Below are positions 5,584 to 23,016 of a DNA stretch of 23,016 nucleotides, one piece after another. The stretch is from a virus (lineage: Duplodnaviria > Heunggongvirae > Uroviricota > Caudoviricetes). Where the stretch lies: the IMG/VR virus record IMGVR_UViG_2563366874_000001. One strand, 5' to 3'. Position numbers and translations under genes: made by a program. Position 1 is the stretch's first letter; every line of letters begins with the position of its first letter. A model generated the notes under the pieces. That model had not been told where the DNA came from, made no database searches, and saw only the letters and a list, made by a program, of their open reading frames with translations.

Positions 5584-6609
5584 ATGTCGATGTACACAAC
5601 CGCCCAGCTGCTGGCGGCAAATGAGAAGAAATTTAAGTTTGATCCGCTGTTTCTGCGTCTCTTTTTCCGTGAGAGCTATCCCTTCACCACGGAGAAAGTC
5701 TATCTCTCACAAATTCCGGGACTGGTAAACATGGCGCTGTACGTTTCGCCGATTGTTTCCGGTGAGGTTATCCGCTCCCGTGGCGGCTCCACCTCTGAAT
5801 TTACGCCGGGATATGTCAAGCCGAAGCATGAGGTGAATCCGCAGATGACCCTGCGTCGCCTGCCGGATGAAGATCCGCAGAATCTGGCGGACCCGGCTTA
5901 CCGCCGCCGTCGCATCATCATGCAGAACATGCGAGACGAAGAGCTGGCCATTGCTCAGGTCGAAGAGATGCAGGCCGTTTCTGCCGTGCTTAAGGGCAAA
6001 TACACCATGACCGGTGAAGCCTTCGATCCGGTTGAAGTGGATATGGGCCGCAGTGCGGCGAACAACATCACACAGTCCGGTGGTACGGAGTGGAGCAAGC
6101 GTGACAAGTCCACGTATGACCCGACCGACGATATCGAAGCCTATGCGCTGAACGCCAGCGGCGTGGTGAATATCATCGTGTTTGATCCGAAAGGCTGGGC
6201 GCTGTTCCGTTCCTTCAAAGCCGTCAAGGAGAAGCTGGATACCCGTCGCGGCTCTAATTCCGAGCTGGAGACAGCGGTAAAAGACCTGGGCGAAGCGGTG
6301 TCCTATAAGGGGATGTATGGCGATACGGCGATCGTCGTGTATTCCGGACAGTACGTGGAAAACGACGTCAAAAAGAACTTCCTTCCGGACAACACGATGG
6401 TGCTGGGGAACACTCAGGCACGCGGTCTGCGCACCTATGGCTGCATTCAGGATGCGGACGCACAGCGCGAAGGTATTAACGCTTCTGCCCGCTACCCGAA
6501 AAACTGGGTGACCACCGGCGATCCGGCGCGTGAGTTCACCATGATTCAGTCAGCACCGCTGATGCTGCTGGCTGACCCTGATGCGTTCGTGTCCGTACAA
6601 CTGGCGTAA
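5584..6609 (+). CDS. E: Major capsid protein E (341 aa)
   Basis: 341 aa, the length of lambda gpE, in the expected position after D. Begins MSMYTTAQLLAANE. Confidence 0.95.
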   Translation: MSMYTTAQLLAANEKKFKFDPLFLRLFFRESYPFTTEKVYLSQIPGLVNMALYVSPIVSGEVIRSRGGSTSEFTPGYVKPKHEVNPQMTLRRLPDEDPQNLADPAYRRRRIIMQNMRDEELAIAQVEEMQAVSAVLKGKYTMTGEAFDPVEVDMGRSAANNITQSGGTEWSKRDKSTYDPTDDIEAYALNASGVVNIIVFDPKGWALFRSFKAVKEKLDTRRGSNSELETAVKDLGEAVSYKGMYGDTAIVVYSGQYVENDVKKNFLPDNTMVLGNTQARGLRTYGCIQDADAQREGINASARYPKNWVTTGDPAREFTMIQSAPLMLLADPDAFVSVQLA

Positions 6610-6611
6610 TC

Positions 6612-6638
6612 ATGGCCCTTCGGGGCCATTTTCTCTTT
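6612..6638 (+). terminator. Stable stem-loop with a UUCG-type tetraloop and a U-rich tail immediately after the capsid gene
   Basis: ATGGCCC-TTCG-GGGCCAT is a perfect 7-bp stem with a TTCG loop, followed by TTTTCTCTTT, 3 nt after the E stop codon. The FI Shine-Dalgarno GGAGGA follows at 6641. Confidence 0.45.
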
Positions 6639-6650
6639 GTGGAGGAGTCC

Positions 6651-7046
6651 ATGACGAAAGATGAACTGATTGCCCGTCTTCAGGTGCTGGGTGAGCAACT
6701 GAACCGTGATGTCAGCCTGACGGGGACGAAAGAAGAACTGGTGCTCCGTGTGGCAGAGCTGGAAGAGGAGCTTGATGACACGGATGACGCTGCCGGTCAG
6801 GACACATCTGTCAGCCCGGAAAATGCGCTGACCGGACATGAAAATGAGGTTGTATCAGCGCAGCCGGATACCGTGACTGATACGGCTGATCTGGTCACGG
6901 TTGTGGCACTGGTGACGCTGCATACTGATGCACTTCACGCCACGCGGGATGAGGCTGTGGCATTTGTGCTGCCGGGAACGGCGTTCCGTGTCTCTGCCGG
7001 TGTGGCAGCTGAAATGACAGAACGTGGCCTGGCCAGAATGCAATAA
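6651..7046 (+). CDS. FI: DNA packaging / head assembly protein FI
   Basis: Starts MTKDELIARL with GGAGGA 5 nt upstream. The track ORF extends further 5' but has no RBS there. About 131 aa. Confidence 0.88.
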   Translation: MTKDELIARLQVLGEQLNRDVSLTGTKEELVLRVAELEEELDDTDDAAGQDTSVSPENALTGHENEVVSAQPDTVTDTADLVTVVALVTLHTDALHATRDEAVAFVLPGTAFRVSAGVAAEMTERGLARMQ

Positions 7047-7057
7047 CGGGAGGCGCT

Positions 7058-7411
7058 GTGGCTGATTTCGATAACCTGTTCGATGCTGCCATTGCCCGCG
7101 CCGATGAAACGATACGCGGGTACATGGGAACGTCAGCCACCATGACATCCGGTGAGCAGTCCGGCGCTGTGATACGTGGTGTTTTTGATGACCCTGAAAA
7201 TATCAGCTATGCCGGACAGGGCGTGCGCGTTGAAGGCTCCAGCCCGTCCCTGTTTGTCCGGACTGATGATGTGCGGCAACTGCGGCGTGGAGACACGCTG
7301 ACCATCGGTGAGGAAAACTTCTGGATAGACCGGGTATCGCCGGATGATGGCGGAAGCTGTCATCTCTGGCTTGGGCGTGGCGTTCCGCCTGCCGTTAACC
7401 GTCGCCGTTGA
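7058..7411 (+). CDS. FII: Head-tail connector protein FII (117 aa), GTG start
   Basis: 117-aa ORF, the length of lambda gpFII, with GTG as first codon at 7058 and a GGGAGG Shine-Dalgarno upstream. Confidence 0.88.
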   Translation: MADFDNLFDAAIARADETIRGYMGTSATMTSGEQSGAVIRGVFDDPENISYAGQGVRVEGSSPSLFVRTDDVRQLRRGDTLTIGEENFWIDRVSPDDGGSCHLWLGRGVPPAVNRRR

Positions 7412-7492
7412 AAGGGGGATGTATGGCCATAAAAGGTCTTGAGCAGGCCGTTGAAAGGGGGATGTATGGCCATACAGGGTCTTGAGCAGGCC
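7407..7492 (+). repeat. Tandem direct duplication of 43 bp (2 copies, 2 mismatches) spanning the Z ribosome-binding site and start codon
   Basis: Copy 1 at 7407-7449 is GTTGAAAGGGGGATGTATGGCCATAAAAGGTCTTGAGCAGGCC. Copy 2 at 7450-7492 is identical except ATAAAAGG becomes ATACAGGG. The 10-mer GCCGTTGAAA occurs three times, at 7404, 7447 and 7490, bounding the unit. Confidence 0.9.
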
Positions 7493-8044
7493 GTTGAAAA
7501 CCTCAGCCGTATCAGCAAAACGGCGGTTCCCGGTGCCGCCGCAATGGCCATTAACCGCGTTGCGTCATCCGCGATATCGCAGTCGGCGTCACAGGTTGCC
7601 CGTGAGACAAAGGTACGCCGGAAACTGGTAAAGGAAAGGGCCAGGCTGAAAAGGGCCACGGTCAAAAATCCGCAGGCCAGAATCAAAGTTAACCGGGGGG
7701 ATTTGCCCGTAATCAAGCTGGGTAATGCGCGGGTTGTCCTGTCCCGCCGCAGGCGTCGTAAAAAGGGGCAGCGTTCATCCCTGAAAGGTGGCGGCAGCGT
7801 GCTTGTGGTGGGTAACCGTCGTATTCCCGGCGCGTTTATTCAGCAACTGAAAAATGGCCGGTGGCATGTTATGCAGCGTGTGGCCGGGAAAAACCGTTAC
7901 CCCATTGATGTGGTGAAAATCCCGATGGCGGTGCCGCTGACCACGGCGTTTAAACAGAATATTGAACGGATACGGCGTGAACGTCTTCCGAAAGAGCTGG
8001 GCTATGCGCTGCAGCATCAACTGAGAATGGTAATAAAGCGATGA
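7466..8044 (+). CDS. Z: Tail completion protein Z (192 aa)
   Basis: Begins MAIQGLEQAVENLSRISK from the ATG in the second repeat copy; 192 aa as in lambda gpZ. ATGA overlap with U at the 3' end. Confidence 0.88.
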   Translation: MAIQGLEQAVENLSRISKTAVPGAAAMAINRVASSAISQSASQVARETKVRRKLVKERARLKRATVKNPQARIKVNRGDLPVIKLGNARVVLSRRRRRKKGQRSSLKGGGSVLVVGNRRIPGAFIQQLKNGRWHVMQRVAGKNRYPIDVVKIPMAVPLTTAFKQNIERIRRERLPKELGYALQHQLRMVIKR

Positions 8045-8436
8045 AACATACTGAACTCCGTGCAGCCGTACTGGATGCACTGGAGAAGCATGACACCGGG
8101 GCGACGCTTTTTGATGGTCGCCCCGCTGTTTTTGATGAGGAAGATTTTCCGGCAATTGCCGTTTATCTCACCGGCGCTGAATACACGGGCGAAGAGCTGG
8201 ACAGCGATACCTGGCAGGCGGAGCTGCATATTGAAGTTTTCCTGCCTGCTCAGGTGCCGGATTCAGAGCTGGATTCGTGGATGGAGTCCCGGATTTATCC
8301 GGTGATGAGCGATATCCCGGCACTGTCAGATTTGATCACCAGTATGGTGGCCAGTGGCTATGACTACCGGCGCGACGATGATGCGGGCCTGTGGAGTTCA
8401 GCCGATCTGACTTATGTCATTACCTATGAAATGTGA
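8041..8436 (+). CDS. U: Tail terminator protein U (131 aa)
   Basis: 131-aa ORF coupled to Z; length and position match lambda gpU. Confidence 0.9.
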
Positions 8437-8443
8437 GGACGCT

Positions 8444-9184
8444 ATGCCTGTACCAAATCCTGTAATGCCGGTGAAAGGTGCCGGGACCACCCTGTGGGTT
8501 TATAAGGGGAGCGGTGACCCTTATGCGAACCCGCTTTCAGACGTTGACTGGTCGCGTCTGGCAAAAGTTAAAGACCTGACGCCCGGCGAACTGACCGCTG
8601 AGTCCTATGACGACAGCTATCTCGATGATGAAGATGCAGACTGGACTGCGACCGGGCAGGGGCAGAAATCTGCCGGAGATACCAGCTTCACGCTGGCGTG
8701 GATGCCCGGAGAGCAGGGGCAGCAGGCGCTGCTGGCGTGGTTTAATGAAGGTGATACCCGTGCCTATAAAATCCGCTTCCCGAACGGCACGGTCGATGTG
8801 TTCCGTGGCTGGGTCAGCAGCATCGGTAAGGCGGTGACGGCAAAGGAAGTGATCACCCGTACGGTGAAGGTCACCAATGTGGGTCGTCCGTCAATGGCAG
8901 AAGAACACAGTACGGTGACGGCGGCAACCGGTATGACCGTGACGCCAGCCAGCGCTTCCGTAGTGAAAGGGAAGAGCACCACGCTGACCGTGGCATTCCA
9001 GCCGGAAGGCGCAACCGACAAGAGCTTCCGTGCGGTGTCAGCGGATAAAACAAAAGCTACCGTGTCGGTCAGTGGTATGACCATCACCGTGAACGGCGTT
9101 GCTGCAGGCAAGGTCAACATTCCGGTTGTATCCGGTAATGGTGAGTTTGCTGCGGTTGCAGAAATTACCGTCACCGCCAGTTAA
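8444..9184 (+). CDS. V: Major tail tube protein V (246 aa) with a C-terminal Ig-like domain
   Basis: Starts [20 protein letters not shown] with a GAGGA Shine-Dalgarno 5 nt upstream of ATG 8444. The track ORF start at 8414 overlaps U and lacks an RBS. The C-terminal about 90 aa ([12 protein letters not shown]...ITVTAS) looks like a Big_2-type Ig fold. Confidence 0.9.
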
Positions 9185-14994: not shown

Positions 14995-17900
14995 ATGGGT
15001 AAAGGAAGCAGTAAGGGGCATACCCCGCGCGAAGCGAAGGACAACCTGAAGTCCACGCAGTTGCTGAGTGTGATCGATGCCATCAGCGAAGGGCCGGTTG
15101 AAGGTCCGGTGGATGGATTAAAAAGCGTGCTGCTGAACAGTACGCCGGTGCTGGACAGTGAGGGGAATACCAATATATCCGGCGTCACGGTGGTGTTCCG
15201 GGCCGGTGAGCAGGAGCAGACACCGCCGGAGGGATTTGAATCCTCCGGCTCCGAGACGGTGCTGGGTACGGAAGTGAAGTACGACACGCCGATTACCCGG
15301 ACCATCACGTCGGCAAACATCGACCGTCTGCGCTTTACCTTCGGTGTGCAGGCACTGGTGGAAACCACCTCAAAGGGGGACCGGAATCCGTCGGAAGTCC
15401 GCCTGCTGGTTCAGATACAGCGTAATGGTGGCTGGGTGACGGAAAAAGACATCACCATTAAAGGCAAAACCACCTCGCAGTATCTAACCTCGGTGGTGGT
15501 GGGTGACCTGCCGCCGCGTCCGTTCAATATCCGGATGCGCAGGATGACGCCGGACAGCACCACAGACCAGCTGCAGAACAAAACGCTCTGGTCGTCATAC
15601 ACCGAAATCATCGATGTGAAACAGTGCTACCCGAACACGGCACTGGTCGGCGTACAGGTGGATTCGGAGCAGTTCGGCAGCCAGCAGGTGAGCCGTAATT
15701 ATCATCTGCGCGGGCGTATTCTGCAGGTGCCGTCGAACTATAACCCGCAGACTCGGCAATACAGCGGTATCTGGGACGGAACGTTTAAGCCAGCATACAG
15801 CAATAACATGGCCTGGTGTCTGTGGGATATGCTGACCCATCCACGCTACGGCATGGGGAAACGTCTTGGTGCGGCGGATGTGGACAAATGGGCGCTGTAT
15901 GTCATCGGCCAGTACTGCGACCAGTCAGTGCCGGACGGCTTTGGCGGCACGGAGCCGCGCATCACCTGTAATGCGTACCTGACCACACAGCGCAAGGCGT
16001 GGGATGTGCTCAGTGATTTCTGCTCGGCGATGCGCTGTATGCCGGTATGGAACGGGCAGACGCTGACGTTCGTGCAGGACCGACCGTCGGATAAGGTGTG
16101 GACCTATAACCGCAGTAATGTGGTGATGCCGGATGATGGCGCGCCGTTCCGCTACAGCTTCAGCGCCCTGAAGGACCGCCATAATGCCGTTGAGGTGAAC
16201 TGGATTGACCCGGACAACGGCTGGGAGACGGCGACAGAGCTTGTTGAAGATACGCAGGCCATTGCCCGTTACGGTCGTAATGTCACGAAGATGGATGCCT
16301 TTGGCTGTACCAGCCGGGGGCAGGCACACCGCGCCGGGCTGTGGCTGATTAAAACGGAACTGCTGGAGACGCAGACCGTGGATTTCAGCGTGGGTGCTGA
16401 AGGGCTTCGCCATGTACCGGGCGATGTCATTGAAATCTGCGATGATGACTATGCCGGTATCAGCACCGGTGGTCGCGTGCTGGCGGTGAACAGCCAGACC
16501 CGGACGCTGACGCTCGACCGTGAAATCACGCTGCCATCCTCCGGTACCACGCTGATAAGCCTGGTTGACGGAAGTGGTAATCCGGTCAGCGTGGAGGTTC
16601 AGTCCGTCACCGACGGACTTAAGGTGAAAGTGAACCGGGTTCCTGACGGCGTTGCAGAATACAGTGTGTGGGGGCTGAAGTTGCCGACGTTGCGTCAGCG
16701 CCTGTTCCGCTGTGTGAGTATCCGTGAGAACGATGACGGCACGTATGCCATCACTGCCGTGCAGCATGTACCGGAAAAAGAAGCCATCGTGGATAACGGG
16801 GCGCACTTTGACGGCGACCAGAGCGGCACGGTGAATGGTGTCACGCCGCCAGCGGTGCAGCACCTGACCGCCGAAGTCACCGCAGACAGCGGGGAATATC
16901 AGGTGCTGGCGCGCTGGGACACGCCGAAGGTGGTGAAGGGCGTGAGCTTCCTGCTCCGTCTGACCGTAACAGCGGATGACGGCAGTGAGCGGCTGGTCAG
17001 CACGGCCCGGACGACGGAAACCACATACCGCTTCACGCAACTGGCGCTGGGGAACTACAGACTGACAGTCCGGGCGGTAAATGCGTGGGGGCAGCAGGGC
17101 GATCCGGCGTCGGTATCGTTCCGGATTGCCGCACCGGCAGCACCGTCGAGGATTGAGCTGACGCCGGGCTATTTTCAGATAACCGCCACGCCGCATCTTG
17201 CCGTTTATGACCCGACGGTACAGTTTGAGTTCTGGTTCTCGGAAAAGCGGATTACCGATATCAGGCAGGTTGAAACCACAGCCCGCTATCTTGGTACGGC
17301 GCTGTACTGGATAGCCGCCAGTATCAATATCAAACCGGGCCATGATTATTACTTTTATATCCGCAGTGTGAACACCGTTGGCAAATCGGCATTCGTGGAG
17401 GCTGTCGGTCAGGCGAGCGATGATGCGGAAGGTTACCTAGATTTTTTCAAAGGCCAGATAACCGAATCCCATCTCGGCAAGGAGCTGCTGGAAAAAGTCG
17501 AGCTGACGGAGGATAACGCCAGCAGACTGGAGGAGTTTTCGAAAGAGTGGCAGGACGCTAACGATAAGTGGAATGCCATGTGGGGCGTCAAAATTGAGCA
17601 GACCAAAGACGGCAAACATTATGTCGCGGGTATTGGCCTCAGCATGGAGGACACGGAAGAAGGCAAGCTGAGCCAGTTTCTGGTTGCCGCTAACCGTATC
17701 GCGTTTATTGACCCGGCAAACGGGAATGAAACGCCGATGTTTGTGGCGCAGGGCAATCAGATATTTATGAACGACGTGTTCCTGAAGCGCCTGACGGCCC
17801 CGACCATTACCAGTGGTGGAAATCCACCGGCATTTTCCCTGACATCAGACGGAAAGCTGACCGCTAAAAATGCGGATATCAGTGGCAGAGTGAATGCGAA

Positions 17901-18408
17901 CGCCGGGACGCTCAACAATGTCACGGTAAATGAAAACTGTACGATTAAGGGCATGCTGGAGGCGACTCAGGTCAGAGGTGACTTCGTTAAAGCTGTATCC
18001 AAATCATTCCCGAAACAGGCTGGTACGTGGGGTAACACGGAAACACCAAACGGGACGGTTACAGTCACCATCAGCGATGATCATAACTTTGACCGTCAAA
18101 TCATTATTCCGCCCATTATCTTTAACGGAATAGCGTATAGCGATCCGGGAAGTGGTAATAACCCGGGAGGTACAAGATACACGGGTTATGGTTTTGAAGT
18201 TCGCAAAAACGGTGTATTAATCGCATCCAGAGAAACTAAAGGGGCCATTCCCGGTAGCTACAGTGCGGTTATTGATATGCCGAGTGGCAGGGGAAGCGTC
18301 ACTCTGGAGTTTAAGGTTTTCCATAAAGGCAATCAGTGGGCAGGTAATATCACCGACTGTACGGTGATTGTGACCAAAAAAGCCGCTTCCGGCATCAGTA
18401 TTCGTTGA
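14995..18408 (+). CDS. J: Central tail fiber / host specificity protein J (1137 aa)
   Basis: 1137-aa ORF starting [20 protein letters not shown]. Lambda gpJ is 1132 aa by my recollection. The last roughly 150 codons are visibly lower in GC than the rest of the gene. Confidence 0.95.
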
Positions 18409-18477: not shown

Positions 18478-19077
18478 ATGCGTAAACTTTATGCCGCCAT
18501 TTTGTCCGCAGCCATTTGTCTGGCCGTATCCGGTGCGCCTGCATGGGCATCTGAACATCAGTCCACGCTGAGCGCGGGGTATCTTCATGCCCGGACCAAC
18601 GTTCCCGGCAGTGATGATCTGAACGGGATTAACGTGAAATACCGTTATGAGTTTACGGATACGCTGGGGCTGGTGACGTCATTCAGCTATGCAGGAGACA
18701 AGAATCGCCAGCTGACCCGTTACAGCGATACCCGCTGGCATGAAGATTCCGTGCGTAACCGCTGGTTCAGCGTGATGGCGGGGCCGTCTGTGCGCGTGAA
18801 TGAATGGTTCAGCGCGTATGCGATGGCGGGTATGGCTTACAGCCGTGTTTCGACTTTTTCCGGGGATTACCTTCGCGTAACTGACAACAAGGGGAAAACG
18901 CACGATGTGCTGACCGGAAGTGATGACGGTCGCCACAGCAACACGTCTCTGGCGTGGGGGGCTGGCGTGCAGTTTAACCCGACCGAATCCGTGGCCATTG
19001 ATATTGCTTATGAAGGTTCTGGCAGTGGTGACTGGCGCACTGACGGTTTCATCGTGGGTGTCGGTTATAAATTCTGA
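18478..19077 (+). CDS. lom: Outer membrane beta-barrel protein Lom (Ail/OmpX family), 199 aa, with signal peptide
   Basis: N-terminal signal peptide MRKLYAAILSAAICLAVSGAPAWA, alternating beta-strand pattern, and a C-terminal aromatic end (GVGYKF). Located between J and stf as in lambda. Confidence 0.9.
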   Translation: MRKLYAAILSAAICLAVSGAPAWASEHQSTLSAGYLHARTNVPGSDDLNGINVKYRYEFTDTLGLVTSFSYAGDKNRQLTRYSDTRWHEDSVRNRWFSVMAGPSVRVNEWFSAYAMAGMAYSRVSTFSGDYLRVTDNKGKTHDVLTGSDDGRHSNTSLAWGAGVQFNPTESVAIDIAYEGSGSGDWRTDGFIVGVGYKF

Positions 19078-19141: not shown

Positions 19142-21538
19142 ATGGCAGTAAAGATTTCAGGTGTACTGAAAGACGGCACAGGAAAACCGGTACAGAACTG
19201 CTCAATCCAGCTGAAAGCAAAACGTAACAGCACCACGGTGGTAGTGAACACGCTGGCCTCAGAAAATCCGGATGAAGCCGGGCGTTACAGTATGGATGTT
19301 GAGTATGGCCAGTACAGCGTTATCCTGCTGGTTGAAGATTTTCCGCCTTCACATGCCGGGACCATCACCGTGTATGAAGATTCTAAGCCGGGGACGCTGA
19401 ATGATTTTCTCGGTGCCATGACGGAAGATGATGTCATGCCGGAGGCATTGCGTCGTTTTGAGGAAATGGTGGAAGAAGCGGCACGCAACGCTGAAGCCGC
19501 CTCTCAGAGCGCAGCGGCGGCAAAGAAATCCGAAACTGCAGCGGCATCATCGAAGAACGCGGCGAAAACCTCAGAAACGAATGCAGCTAATAGTGCACAG
19601 GCGGCAGCGACCTCAAAGACTGCATCGGCAAACTCCGCGACAGCAGCCAAAAAATCAGAAACCAACGCGAAAAATAGCGAGACAGCCGCAAAGACGAGCG
19701 AAACCAACGCAAAGTCCAGCCAGACGGCAGCGAAAACCAGCGAAACGAATGCCAAAGCCAGTGAAACTGCGGCAAAAAACAGCCAGGTTGCAGCAGCCCA
19801 AAGCGAGAGCGCGGCAGCCGGTTCTGCGACTTCAGCAGCTGGATCAGCAACTGCTGCGGCTAACAGCCAGAAAGCTGCGAAGACGAGTGAAACTAACGCA
19901 AAGTCCAGCCAGACGGCAGCGAAGACCAGCGAAACGAATGCCAAAACCAGCGAAACTGCGGCGAAAAACAGTCAGGATGCAGCAGCCCAAAGCGAGAGTG
20001 CTGCAGCTGGTTCTGCAAGCGCGGCAGCTGCTTCTGCCACTGCATCAGCCAACAGTCAAAAAGCAGCAAAAACCAGTGAAACCAATGCAAAGACAAGCGA
20101 GACTGCAGCGGCGAACTCGGCGAAAGCATCGGCAGCAAGCCAGACAGCAGCTAAAGCAAGTGAAGACGCAGCCAGAGAGTATGCAAGTCAGGCAGCAGAG
20201 CCGTATAAATATGTCTTACAGCCACTGCCTGATGTGTGGATACCGTTTAACGATTCACTGGATATGATTACGGGCTTTTCGCCGTCATATAAAAAAATTG
20301 TTATTGGTGATGATGAAATAACGATGCCTGGCGACAAGGTTGTTAAGTTTAAACGCGCATCAACTGCCACATATATCAATAAATCAGGCGTATTTAGTGT
20401 TGCTAAAATTGATGAGCCACGATTTGAAAAAGAAGGTTTATTGATTGAAGGACAGCGCACTAACTATTTTGTTAAATCCAATACTCCCGCTGAATGGACG
20501 AGTACCAGCAATATCGATAAAACTAATAATGGTGTTGATGAATTTGGTTTTTCATATGCCAAAATGCGAACAAAAGATAATATGACAGGACAATCATCTG
20601 CACTTAGTCTGCATACATGCAGTGCATCCCGGGGGATTGATGTTAGTGGCGATAATAAGTATTGCACTGTTTCATGCAGGGTTAAAGCTCCTGATGGTCT
20701 TCGTTGTCGTTTGCGTTTTGAAAAATACGATGGGTCGGTTTATACATTTTTAGGAGATGCTTATTTAACTTTCGGAACTCTGATAATAGAAAAAACTGGC
20801 GGAGCAGCCAATAGAATAGCAGCTACTGCAACTAAAGATCCGGTTACAGGGTGGATTTTCTATGAGGCAACTATAGAAGCTGTTGAAGGTGAAACCTTAA
20901 TTGGCGCAATGATTCAGTATGCGCCGAAAAAAGGTGGTATAACTGAAGCGGGAGATTATATTTACCTTGCAACACCACAATTTGAAAACGGCGGATGTGC
21001 TTCATCTTTTGTTATTACGACAACTGCACCCGCAACCCGCTCCAGTGATATGGTGACGATCCCAACTGAAAATAATATCTATAATAGACCGCTTACGTGT
21101 CTTGTCGAGGTTAATAGAAATTGGGGCGATATTCCTCCTAATGTAGCACCGCGTATTTTTGATTTTTCTGGTGTGCCACCTATTGAGTCAATTACATACG
21201 CTTTTAACACAACTGAGAAATATTACGGTCAGCTTTATATGCAAACTTATAAAGCGTCGACAAGTACTTACGTTTCTAGTGTGTTTGCTGGTCGAGCTGA
21301 TGTTCGAAAATTCATTGGTGGTTTTAATATTTATTCTGATGGTACTAAACGAGTAGTTTCTAACGGTGAGGCTACTAAAACTATGAAAACGGAGTGGACG
21401 GGCGTAAAAACACGGACCTTTATTCGAATTGGAGGTCAAGCCACATCGGGAACTCGTCATCTATTCGGCCATTTGAGAAATCTTCGTCTCTGGCATAAAG
21501 AATTAACTGATGCGCAAATGGGGGAGAGTATTAAATGA
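19142..21538 (+). CDS. stf: Side tail fiber protein (798 aa), mosaic: lambda-Stf-like N-terminus, Ala/Ser/Thr-rich repeat shaft, low-GC C-terminal receptor-binding region
   Basis: The N-terminus MAVKISGVLKDGTGKPVQNC...TITVYED matches my recollection of the lambda Stf N-terminal domain. Residues about 120-350 are AAKTSETNAK-type repeats. From about nt 20200 the sequence is AT-rich and ends with a LamG/ConA-like signature (HLFGHLRNLRLWHKELTDAQMGE). Confidence 0.85.
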   Translation: MAVKISGVLKDGTGKPVQNCSIQLKAKRNSTTVVVNTLASENPDEAGRYSMDVEYGQYSVILLVEDFPPSHAGTITVYEDSKPGTLNDFLGAMTEDDVMPEALRRFEEMVEEAARNAEAASQSAAAAKKSETAAASSKNAAKTSETNAANSAQAAATSKTASANSATAAKKSETNAKNSETAAKTSETNAKSSQTAAKTSETNAKASETAAKNSQVAAAQSESAAAGSATSAAGSATAAANSQKAAKTSETNAKSSQTAAKTSETNAKTSETAAKNSQDAAAQSESAAAGSASAAAASATASANSQKAAKTSETNAKTSETAAANSAKASAASQTAAKASEDAAREYASQAAEPYKYVLQPLPDVWIPFNDSLDMITGFSPSYKKIVIGDDEITMPGDKVVKFKRASTATYINKSGVFSVAKIDEPRFEKEGLLIEGQRTNYFVKSNTPAEWTSTSNIDKTNNGVDEFGFSYAKMRTKDNMTGQSSALSLHTCSASRGIDVSGDNKYCTVSCRVKAPDGLRCRLRFEKYDGSVYTFLGDAYLTFGTLIIEKTGGAANRIAATATKDPVTGWIFYEATIEAVEGETLIGAMIQYAPKKGGITEAGDYIYLATPQFENGGCASSFVITTTAPATRSSDMVTIPTENNIYNRPLTCLVEVNRNWGDIPPNVAPRIFDFSGVPPIESITYAFNTTEKYYGQLYMQTYKASTSTYVSSVFAGRADVRKFIGGFNIYSDGTKRVVSNGEATKTMKTEWTGVKTRTFIRIGGQATSGTRHLFGHLRNLRLWHKELTDAQMGESIK
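19688..20062 (+). repeat. Two tandem copies of an approximately 186-189 bp (62-63 aa) in-frame coding repeat within stf, themselves built from roughly 21-bp (7-aa) sub-repeats
   Basis: Copy 1 at 19688-19873 encodes AKTSETNAKSSQTAAKTSETNAKASETAAKNSQVAAAQSESAAAGSATSAAGSATAAANSQK. Copy 2 at about 19877-20062 encodes the same with a few substitutions. The segment AAAGTCCAGCCAGACGGCAGCGAA recurs at 19710 and 19890. Confidence 0.85.
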
Positions 21539-21816
21539 AAGATTTAACACTCAAATTTGCAGACAGGGCCGACTTTTCGGCCTTTATGGAGAGCATTGGC
21601 TATTATGATGACGAGTCGATGCAGGATGATATTCTTATTGACGTGATAGGTAATGTGTACAAAGAAACCGGAGAACTTACTGAAGATGGCGAGCCGGTAT
21701 GTGTTAAGGAGGACGGATATTTTGTAAATGTGCGCATCATTAATGATTCGCAAATATCGTCATTATTCGATGAATACGTGGTTGCTGTTGAGCATCAACT
21801 CCGTAGCTGGATGTGA
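21535..21816 (+). CDS. Small acidic hypothetical protein (93 aa), translationally coupled to stf; possible tail fiber assembly or chaperone factor
   Basis: ATGA overlap with the stf stop codon. Low GC like the stf 3' region. No recognisable similarity to lambda Tfa, so the function is inferred from position only. Confidence 0.5.
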   Translation: MKDLTLKFADRADFSAFMESIGYYDDESMQDDILIDVIGNVYKETGELTEDGEPVCVKEDGYFVNVRIINDSQISSLFDEYVVAVEHQLRSWM

Positions 21817-21825
21817 GGAAGAAAA

Positions 21826-22530
21826 ATGGCTACATCGACAGTAATTCCTGATGACATCAAAACGCTAAAGGGAGATGTCAGTAAGGCAAAGGAAGATATT
21901 TCCTCAATTAACGTAAAAGTATCAACGCTTCAGACTGATATGGACAGTGCAAAGCAGGATATCAGTACCAGATACACAAAAACAGAAGTGGATAATAAGC
22001 TGAAAAACAAAGTGGAAGTGAACGATCTGGAAAGTGGTCGTTATGGCGGAGATTTTTACCCGCTGACTGGCCGTGAAGCGTTTTATTTATGGGGATTGGG
22101 CACAACTACAGCGGCGGCAAATCTTTATCTTAATCCTGACCCTGCAATTTCGTCTGTGCTGCGGTCAACATCGTCTATCCGCTATAAACATTCAGTAGAG
22201 ACGATAGATTCAGAGCACGCCGATCTCATTTTCAGGATGCGCCCTGTGTGGTACAGGTCGCAATGCGAAAATGACAGGCGTGACTGGGGATTCTATGGAT
22301 TGATTGCCGAGGAAGTAGGAGAAATTGCCCCTCAGTTTGTTCACTGGCGACCAGCCAACGAAGATGATGCACCGGAAACCATTTCCAGCAATGGCCTTGT
22401 TGCCGAAGGTGTAATGTACGAACGTCTGGTTGTTCCACTGATTCACCATATCCAGAAACTGACTGAAAGAGTTGATGAACTTGAGTCAGAATTGAAGTTG
22501 TTATCAACTTCCCAAAGCGATATCGGATAA
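21826..22530 (+). CDS. Tail-fiber-like protein (234 aa): N-terminal coiled-coil-like region plus C-terminal peptidase-S74-like intramolecular chaperone domain
   Basis: GGAAGA Shine-Dalgarno-like sequence upstream of ATG 21826. The C-terminal half (SSIRYKHSVETIDSEHADLIFRMRPVWYR...GLIAEEV...LVVPLIHHIQKLTERVDELESELKLL) follows the pattern of the endosialidase/T5 pb1 C-terminal chaperone domain, including a Ser-x4-Lys dyad at S116/K121 (nt 22171-22188). Confidence 0.65.
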   Translation: MATSTVIPDDIKTLKGDVSKAKEDISSINVKVSTLQTDMDSAKQDISTRYTKTEVDNKLKNKVEVNDLESGRYGGDFYPLTGREAFYLWGLGTTTAAANLYLNPDPAISSVLRSTSSIRYKHSVETIDSEHADLIFRMRPVWYRSQCENDRRDWGFYGLIAEEVGEIAPQFVHWRPANEDDAPETISSNGLVAEGVMYERLVVPLIHHIQKLTERVDELESELKLLSTSQSDIG

Positions 22531-22551
22531 AGGAGGAGTAATGGATATAAC

Positions 22552-23016
<465 letters not shown>

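Follow-up and report, generated by a model that had tools for sequence, protein, structure and literature searches.

What can a short protein that ends in a self-cleaving fibre chaperone domain do for a tailed phage? The question is raised by orf234, an intact open reading frame (21826..22530, plus strand; ATG at 21826, TAA at 22528-22530) encoding 234 amino acids (aa; 26.3 kDa) in IMG/VR record IMGVR_UViG_2563366874_000001. The window, that is, the whole 23,016-nucleotide stretch that was analysed, is the late region of an Escherichia coli lambdoid prophage. The protein is 100% identical to WP_000235966.1 of E. coli TO6, named "tail fiber domain-containing protein" by PGAP, and phage PhiR49_1 encodes an identical product; the family is already annotated and widespread, and a literature search returned no paper on the short protein itself. 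An earlier note, made from the sequence alone, had proposed three roles for orf234: a miniature accessory fibre or tip, a remnant of a module exchange, or a trans-acting fibre chaperone. Genomic context favours the first, as orf234 occupies the site of larger distal-fibre alleles that begin with the same 15 residues. Taken together, the data indicate that orf234 is probably the minimal distal subunit of a two-part side tail fibre, its docking peptide and six heptads being followed by a short end module and a chaperone that cleaves itself, and the best explanation is that it represents the smallest known form of a distal add-on fibre subunit.

The chaperone assignment was the firmest part of the earlier note and has held. 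The protein matches Pfam PF13884 (Peptidase_S74) with 27.3 bits against a curated gathering score of 22 (E 4.6e-6; residues 116-172, profile positions 1-57 of 58). The match starts at S116-S-I-R-Y-K121 (22171..22188, plus strand), the predicted catalytic Ser-Lys dyad, which lies exactly where it had been placed (...VLRSTS116SIRYK121HSVE), with the predicted scissile bond at T115|S116. Both S116 and K121 are invariant in an alignment of 30 homologues, together with 18 other positions; the PVWYRS stretch at residues 140-145 is invariant in the same alignment, and SSIRYK aligns with the S-x4-K of LtfA of phage DT57C. A search of PDB sequences with orf234 also returned the C-terminal chaperone of DT57C LtfA as best match (E 4.9e-7), followed more weakly by the ICA domain of MyRF, and a profile search of the same sequences with the family alignment found nothing beyond DT57C LtfA. 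In an AlphaFold2 (AF2) monomer model built on the 30 homologues (mean pLDDT, the predicted score of the local distance difference test, 65), the C-terminal domain is reasonably confident and residues 198-233 (22417-22524) form a long helix; in fold, the domain is closest to the ICA domain of MyRF and the chaperone of the endosialidase endoNF, and less close to the T5 pb1 and GA-1 chaperones. The profile match, the conserved dyad and the modelled chaperone fold with its long C-terminal helix support an S74 C-terminal intramolecular chaperone domain at residues 116-234 (22171..22527, plus strand) and a predicted cut before S116. The expected fragment of about 13 kDa agrees with the calculated masses, 12.6 kDa for residues 1-115 and 13.8 kDa for residues 116-234. 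That the domain sits on a short protein is true of orf234, but the rarity of such an arrangement had been overstated, as 19 of the 150 best representative homologues are shorter than 300 aa.

The 115 residues that precede the chaperone fall into three parts. Codons 1-15 (21826..21870, plus strand) encode MATSTVIPDDIKTLK, a conserved N-terminus common to the alleles of this gene and a putative docking peptide for a proximal fibre. Six heptads follow at residues 10-51 (21853..21978, plus strand), with I or V at position 2 and L, A or I at position 5, and are predicted to form a trimeric coiled-coil stalk; the length of this region differs by whole repeats among homologues of 221-269 aa. The AF2 model places helices at residues 9-47 (pLDDT 77-84) and 52-60. 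The N-terminal 115 residues had been described as coiled-coil-like with K-x-D-I-S repeats, which is correct for residues ~10-60, where the motif K-x-D-[IV]-S occurs three times (residues 15, 22 and 43), but not for residues 63-122, which are non-helical. The third part is a pre-cleavage end module at residues 52-115 (YTKTEVD ... TTTAAANLYLNPDPAISSVLRST; 21979..22170, plus strand), which precedes the predicted scissile bond and, after cleavage, would be the C-terminus of the mature product; within it T94 is nearly invariant and N99 invariant in the 30-sequence alignment. Residues ~49-115 have a counterpart in one-piece fibres of 539-1243 aa, where they align with the stretch in front of the chaperone, and over residues ~49-234 the identity to the C-terminal ends of these fibres, including lambdoid Stf proteins with a phage_tail_N anchor, amounts to 55-61%; beyond its coiled coil, orf234 is therefore a bona fide fibre end.

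Although orf234 had been introduced as a stand-alone protein, it is not free-standing genomically and belongs to a conserved three-gene cassette. The genes in the window run L, K, I, J (14995-18408), lom (18478-19077), stf, orf93, orf234 and a stub of orf97. The first gene of the cassette encodes an Stf-like proximal side tail fibre of 798 aa (19142..21538, plus strand) with a lambda-type anchor (aa 1-131; Pfam phage_tail_N, E 1.9e-68), a shaft of Ala/Ser/Thr-rich repeats and a distal lectin-like domain of ~440 aa that starts at PLPDVWIPFNDSL (~20220-21535, plus strand). The distal 450 aa are 50% identical to Gp22 of phage IrisVonRoten and 44% identical to the Ltf of the T1-like phage KarlJaspers. 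The second gene, orf93 (21535..21816, plus strand), encodes an acidic protein of 93 aa (10.7 kDa, pI 4.05) that matches phrog_1361 (E 2.7e-46) and no Pfam or NCBIfam family. In KarlJaspers, three consecutive genes correspond to the distal ~450 aa of Stf, to orf93 (54% identity) and to orf234 (59%), and the N-terminal anchor of the KarlJaspers fibre is unlike that of the window Stf. This arrangement, in which a 650-800-aa fibre precedes a 91-93-aa gene and a third gene, was found in the lambdoid 2G7b, IdasGreatGrand, PhiR55_1 and PhiR49_1, in the N15-like PhiR46_1, in the Nonagvirus ESCO3 and in the T5-like HMD-P4 and IrisVonRoten; orf234 is the third gene after a lectin-type proximal fibre and a gene of 92-93 aa.

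The members of the cassette are not equally tied to each other. A homologue of orf93, always 3' of a lectin-type fibre, is found in 183 phage records; they span lambdoid, T1-like, Dhillonvirus, Queuovirinae, T5-like and rV5-like phages. Phage 21 possesses the fibre, a 92-aa homologue of orf93 and the membrane-protein gene that follows the cassette, and the third gene is missing. The third gene is therefore an optional add-on, whereas orf93 goes with the fibre; a chaperone of the lectin-like domain and a connector are its candidate roles.

Comparison of the third genes at this site reveals alleles of very different size that share just the first 15 residues and the S74 end. The window allele (234 aa) has the N-terminus MATSTVIPDDIKTLKGDVSK and the cleavage motif SSIRYK. 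The alleles of 2G7b, PhiR46_1 and ESCO3 (345-351 aa) start with MATSTVIPDDIKTLKSDVSK, their first 15 residues being the same as in orf234, and have the motif SDRDLK, which is also found in the 333-aa allele of HMD-P4; the 574-aa Gp24 of IrisVonRoten has SDSRLK, and both HMD-P4 and Gp24 begin with the near variant MVTKTVIPTDITKLK. The N-terminal pattern common to the alleles, orf234 included, is M-x-T-x-T-[VN]-I-P-x-D-I-x-x-L-K, and PF13884 was found at the C-terminus of all three alleles scanned (window, 2G7b and Gp24). Among 80 IMG/VR prophage loci fetched for a near-identical orf93, the third gene starts with MATSTVIP... in 78; about 30 carry the short allele (227-241 aa) and about 40 a long one (323-347 aa).

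The mosaic boundaries are sharp at the nucleotide level. Between TO6, which is of the window type, and 2G7b, the Stf anchor and shaft are 95% identical and the Stf distal domain shows no similarity; identity then resumes at the end of stf and holds at 92% across orf93 and the first 44 nucleotides of the third gene, is lost in the body of that gene, and returns at 97% from orf97 on. This pattern defines two independent swap modules, the Stf distal domain and the third-gene body, and judging from the alignments the body after codon 15 is an exchangeable module. Stf distal-domain types and third-gene alleles re-assort among the 80 loci. A specific pairing of a distal type with a third-gene allele was considered and ruled out, since clusters 1-4 of the distal domain hold both alleles.

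The short allele is under purifying selection and is common. Between lambdoid variants the ratio of nonsynonymous to synonymous substitution rates (dN/dS) is 0.19-0.23 for the whole gene, 0.36-0.58 for residues 1-65, 0.09-0.22 for residues 66-115 and 0.09-0.23 for residues 116-234. A library of 1.84 billion representative proteins yielded 3,465 homologues (E <= 1e-3). Of 5,426 complete E. coli genomes, 746 (14%) contain the short-allele body, as do ~45 Escherichia phage records, mostly T1-like Drexlerviridae; isolated phages that carry it include IdasGreatGrand, PhiR55_1 and PhiR49_1. The matches in E. coli genomes occupy 933 places, eight of them on plasmids, and one lies in the E. coli B laboratory strain NZ_CP014269.1 with 94% identity.

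From these features we infer that the orf234 product trimerises, cleaves itself, attaches to Stf and is present in the virion. Assembly would begin with the S74 domains (116-234), which would bring three chains into register while the long terminal helices form a bundle. Folding of the end module (~52-115) would then be templated and the six-heptad coiled coil (10-51) would zip up. Ser116, presumably activated by Lys121, would cut the T115|S116 bond, and the 13.8-kDa chaperone would leave. The mature trimer of 12.6-kDa chains could then dock via MATSTVIPDDIKTLK on the distal end of Stf, which has a lateral lectin-like domain of its own.

Several observations weigh against this scheme. The attachment of Gp24 to Gp22, its closest precedent, is a structure prediction in the literature and not a measurement. 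When the Stf of phage 21 was compared with the Stf proteins of phages that have the third gene, every conserved motif was found in all of them, and no docking site was identified. Residues 63-122 are unmodelled in the AF2 monomer (pLDDT <50), and searches of residues 1-115 against Pfam and the PDB returned coiled-coil noise only, with no receptor-binding domain recognised. The only virion proteomics found for phages that carry the cassette, swan01 and mar004NP2 (PMC6563131, supplements), is too shallow to reveal this protein, covering a handful of major proteins: the proximal fibre of mar004NP2 was detected, and no cassette protein was detected for swan01. Finally, orf234 is much more conserved than its neighbours: its dN is 0.036, compared with 0.17-0.24 (stf) and 0.10-0.42 (orf93) between the same phages. 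Such constancy is unusual in a determinant of host range and is easier to reconcile with a structural or capping function than with a variable adhesin. The end module may bind a receptor or may cap or extend the fibre, and the degree to which it is conserved favours a role that is structural or involves a generic ligand.

The same conservation has a bearing on the proposal that orf234 works in trans, as an assembly factor or transient cap that docks for a short time at the proximal fibre's end, aids trimerisation or masks that end, cleaves itself and is lost. Records of BASEL phages label homologues of orf234 "putative lateral tail fiber chaperone", a label that the BASEL papers do not back with evidence. 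A precedent exists in other phages, for which fibres with transient chaperone caps have been reported, as cited in PMC11990801; the mature part of orf234, which contains no recognisable receptor-binding domain, and its unusual conservation relative to the fibre it accompanies would agree with such a role. The proposal nevertheless meets a difficulty in phage 21, which has this Stf type and the small second gene and lacks the third: the fibre does not need the third gene, and orf234 is not an obligatory companion of its fibre. Same-site alleles with the same N-terminal peptide carry 200-450 additional aa, modelled in Gp24 as receptor-binding domains. Pfam and NCBIfam scans revealed no similarity to chaperone families of the Tfa, gp38 or gp57 type, and among the Pfam, NCBIfam and PHROGs matches none points to Tfa, gp38 or Mu U, the PHROG matches being tail fibre families. 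S74 domains have been described as cis-acting, which also speaks against a role in trans. The trans-acting chaperone, one of the roles offered by the earlier note, is thus disfavoured both by phage 21 and by the larger same-site alleles, and we regard it as unlikely. A special form of the idea, in which S74 serves as an intermolecular device, with the 26-kDa protein docking by its 15-residue peptide, setting the register of the proximal-fibre trimer or masking it, cutting itself and never entering the virion, appears distinctly improbable.

Equally doubtful is the reading of orf234 as a genuine small fibre whose attachment site is not Stf but, for instance, the tail tip itself, where it would be an independent short accessory fibre. 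In its favour, third-gene and Stf distal-domain alleles re-assort freely, no docking site was found in Stf, and the Stf of phage 21 is unchanged despite the missing third gene. However, the cassette moves as a unit among lambdoid, T1-like, T5-like and Nonagvirus phages, whose tails have unrelated tips; a docking site on orf93 or on the part of the fibre that they share is therefore far more economical than a separate one for each tail; the published model also places the homologous Gp24 on Gp22. The module-exchange remnant, i.e., a non-functional 3' end of an older one-piece fibre gene left after the lectin-type module and orf93 recombined in, could account for the homology of residues ~49-234 to one-piece lambdoid Stf C-termini and for the fragments of tail-fibre assembly genes that lie 3' of the cassette in intact loci, but it is very improbable in view of the intact reading frame with a good ribosome-binding site (GAGGA, read from the sequence at 21815..21819, plus strand, 6 nucleotides 5' of the start), the dN/dS of ~0.2 with the dyad and 18 other positions invariant, a start and first 15 residues that are conserved and common to other alleles, and the gene's retention in lambdoid phages, in virulent T1-like phages with their compact genomes and in 14% of the complete genomes of E. 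coli. An origin from a one-piece fibre remains plausible as the history of orf234, as distinct from its present state.

The distal-subunit reading finds its closest counterpart in IrisVonRoten (Bas32, Tequintavirus), whose Gp24 was modelled as a "T-shaped" distal fibre on the proximal fibre Gp22 (Humolli et al. 2025, PMC11990801). According to that model, Gp24 comprises one Gp12-like and one T5-like receptor-binding domain along with a C-terminal chaperone, and a galectin-like domain juts out at the C-terminal end of Gp22 (PMC11990801). The window shares with IrisVonRoten the gene order, the Gp22-like distal part of Stf and the small intermediate gene (92 aa, 39% identical to orf93), and orf234 resembles Gp24 in its N-terminal motif (MVTKTVIPTDITKLK in Gp24 versus MATSTVIPDDIKTLK) and in its C-terminal PF13884 domain. 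Unlike the 574-aa Gp24, orf234 has just the coiled coil and a ~65-aa segment before the chaperone; the two can be aligned only over the first ~28 residues and the chaperone region, and their S74 subtypes differ (SSIRYK versus SDSRLK). The receptor-binding domains of Gp24 do not align to orf234, which has none between anchor and chaperone, and orf234 would therefore correspond to a minimal form of the distal subunit and not to a T-shaped fibre. The ~346-aa allele of E. coli lambdoid prophages and of 2G7b, PhiR46_1 and ESCO3 resembles orf234 in its exact site, its first 15 residues, its near-identical flanks (orf93 and orf97) and its S74 end, whereas it contains a ~200-aa domain between anchor and chaperone, has the classical SDRDLK motif and shows no nucleotide similarity in the gene body.

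A second counterpart is the branched L-shaped tail fibre of DT57C, in which LtfB is attached via LtfA, as inferred from genetics and sequence comparison (Golomidova 2016, PMC4728585), a view shared by Ayala 2023 (PMC10713586). The first 45 residues of LtfB match the partner-binding fibre gp15 of phiEco32 (PMC4728585). Both DT57C proteins end in autocleavable PF13884 domains; TKTEVD-type repeats occur in LtfA, and LtfB has a repeat or coiled stretch near its N-terminus, as in orf234. Unlike orf234, LtfB is a protein of 788 aa that sets the host range and whose N-terminus is unrelated to the MATSTVIP motif, and the DT57C locus has neither orf93 nor a lectin-type distal domain. Endosialidase K1F (3gw6), the GA-1 neck appendage (3gud) and T5 pb1 (4uw8) share with orf234 the chaperone fold, the starting Ser-x4-Lys dyad and its C-terminal place, but there the passenger is a large spike or long fibre, compared with 115 residues here. 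The MYRF ICA domain (7dc3) comes from a eukaryotic membrane-bound transcription factor and has no functional relation to orf234 beyond the domain.

The one-piece Stf proteins P0066 (958 aa) and P0065 (735 aa) are related to orf234 in yet another way. They are 57-61% identical to it over residues ~45/50-224/234, the last 35 residues of P0066 being near-identical, and their phage_tail_N anchor is that of the window Stf. In these proteins the end module is a covalent part of the fibre, whereas in orf234 it belongs to a separate polypeptide with its own putative docking peptide.

If the proposed role is correct, orf234 would carry the smallest natural S74 passenger, 115 residues of which roughly half are coiled coil, and would provide a convenient 26-kDa model for trimer nucleation and self-cleavage by S74 domains. 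The 15-residue peptide and the orf93 flank would then act as a plug-and-socket junction across lambdoid, N15-like, T1-like, Nonagvirus and T5-like phages, at which distal tips could be exchanged independently of the lectin-like domain of the proximal fibre, a property useful for re-targeting lambda-type particles. The database label "putative lateral tail fiber chaperone" would in that case probably be a misnomer for the protein as a whole. Current understanding is not overturned by any of this, since two-part and branched fibres as well as self-cleaving chaperone domains are established; what is useful is the placement of orf234 in a swappable fibre cassette and the recognition of the shared 15-residue anchor.

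Some further observations concern the cassette and its surroundings. The genes orf93 and orf234 lie in one frame (21814-21828) and are separated by a TGA and three sense codons, as they are in 2G7b, PhiR55_1 and HMD-P4. A read-through fusion of the two was considered and is unlikely, the KarlJaspers genes overlapping in different frames. Within Stf, aa 434-634 (20441-21043) match the NCBIfam family GTA_spike_fiber (E 1.6e-15), the spike fibre on the head of the Rhodobacter gene transfer agent (GTA; PDB 6tb9), a match that links the tip of a lambdoid tail fibre to a GTA head fibre. The DNA of the Stf shaft (19639-20110) consists of tandem 189-bp repeats (2.3 copies, 83% matches, with 21- and 42-bp sub-periods) that encode repeats of the AAKTSETNAKSSQT type, and the long alternative-frame and antisense open reading frames over the shaft (19428-20267, plus strand; 19504-19944, minus strand) are due to this repeat composition.

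In PhiR46_1 the cassette (6420-9043 of its locus) resides in an N15-like linear plasmid-prophage, with parA/parB and the telR site directly 3', so that the module passes between temperate phages of the integrating and of the plasmid type. In KarlJaspers and ESCO3 the cassette is followed by a homologous protein of 233-236 aa with a Gly-rich N-terminus and a Cys-rich end (...PTGCCG), which is labelled "putative sugar-binding protein" in KarlJaspers and belongs to a PHROG family without function.

The gene next to orf234 in the window is orf97, of which the first 11 nucleotides (M-D-I-T...; 22541..22551, plus strand) are left, the gene being cut off there by an insertion sequence; similarity to intact loci ends at 22551. 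The gene is intact in TO6, 2G7b, PhiR46_1 and phage 21 (95-99 aa), and its product is annotated in phage 21 with two transmembrane domains. It (MDITPFLHALCAVAA...) is 97% identical at the nucleotide level between TO6 and 2G7b, is conserved across lambdoid phages whatever fibre alleles precede it, and could be a moron or have an exclusion function. The inserted element belongs to the IS3 family; its end occupies 22552..23016 on the minus strand, with a fragment of a transposase integrase core (Pfam rve, rve_3 and rve_2 matches at 22594-23004, minus strand), and it runs off the window. As it is inserted 11 nucleotides into orf97, this prophage is without that membrane-protein gene; copies 100% identical to the element and labelled "IS3 family transposase" are present in thousands of E. 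coli records.

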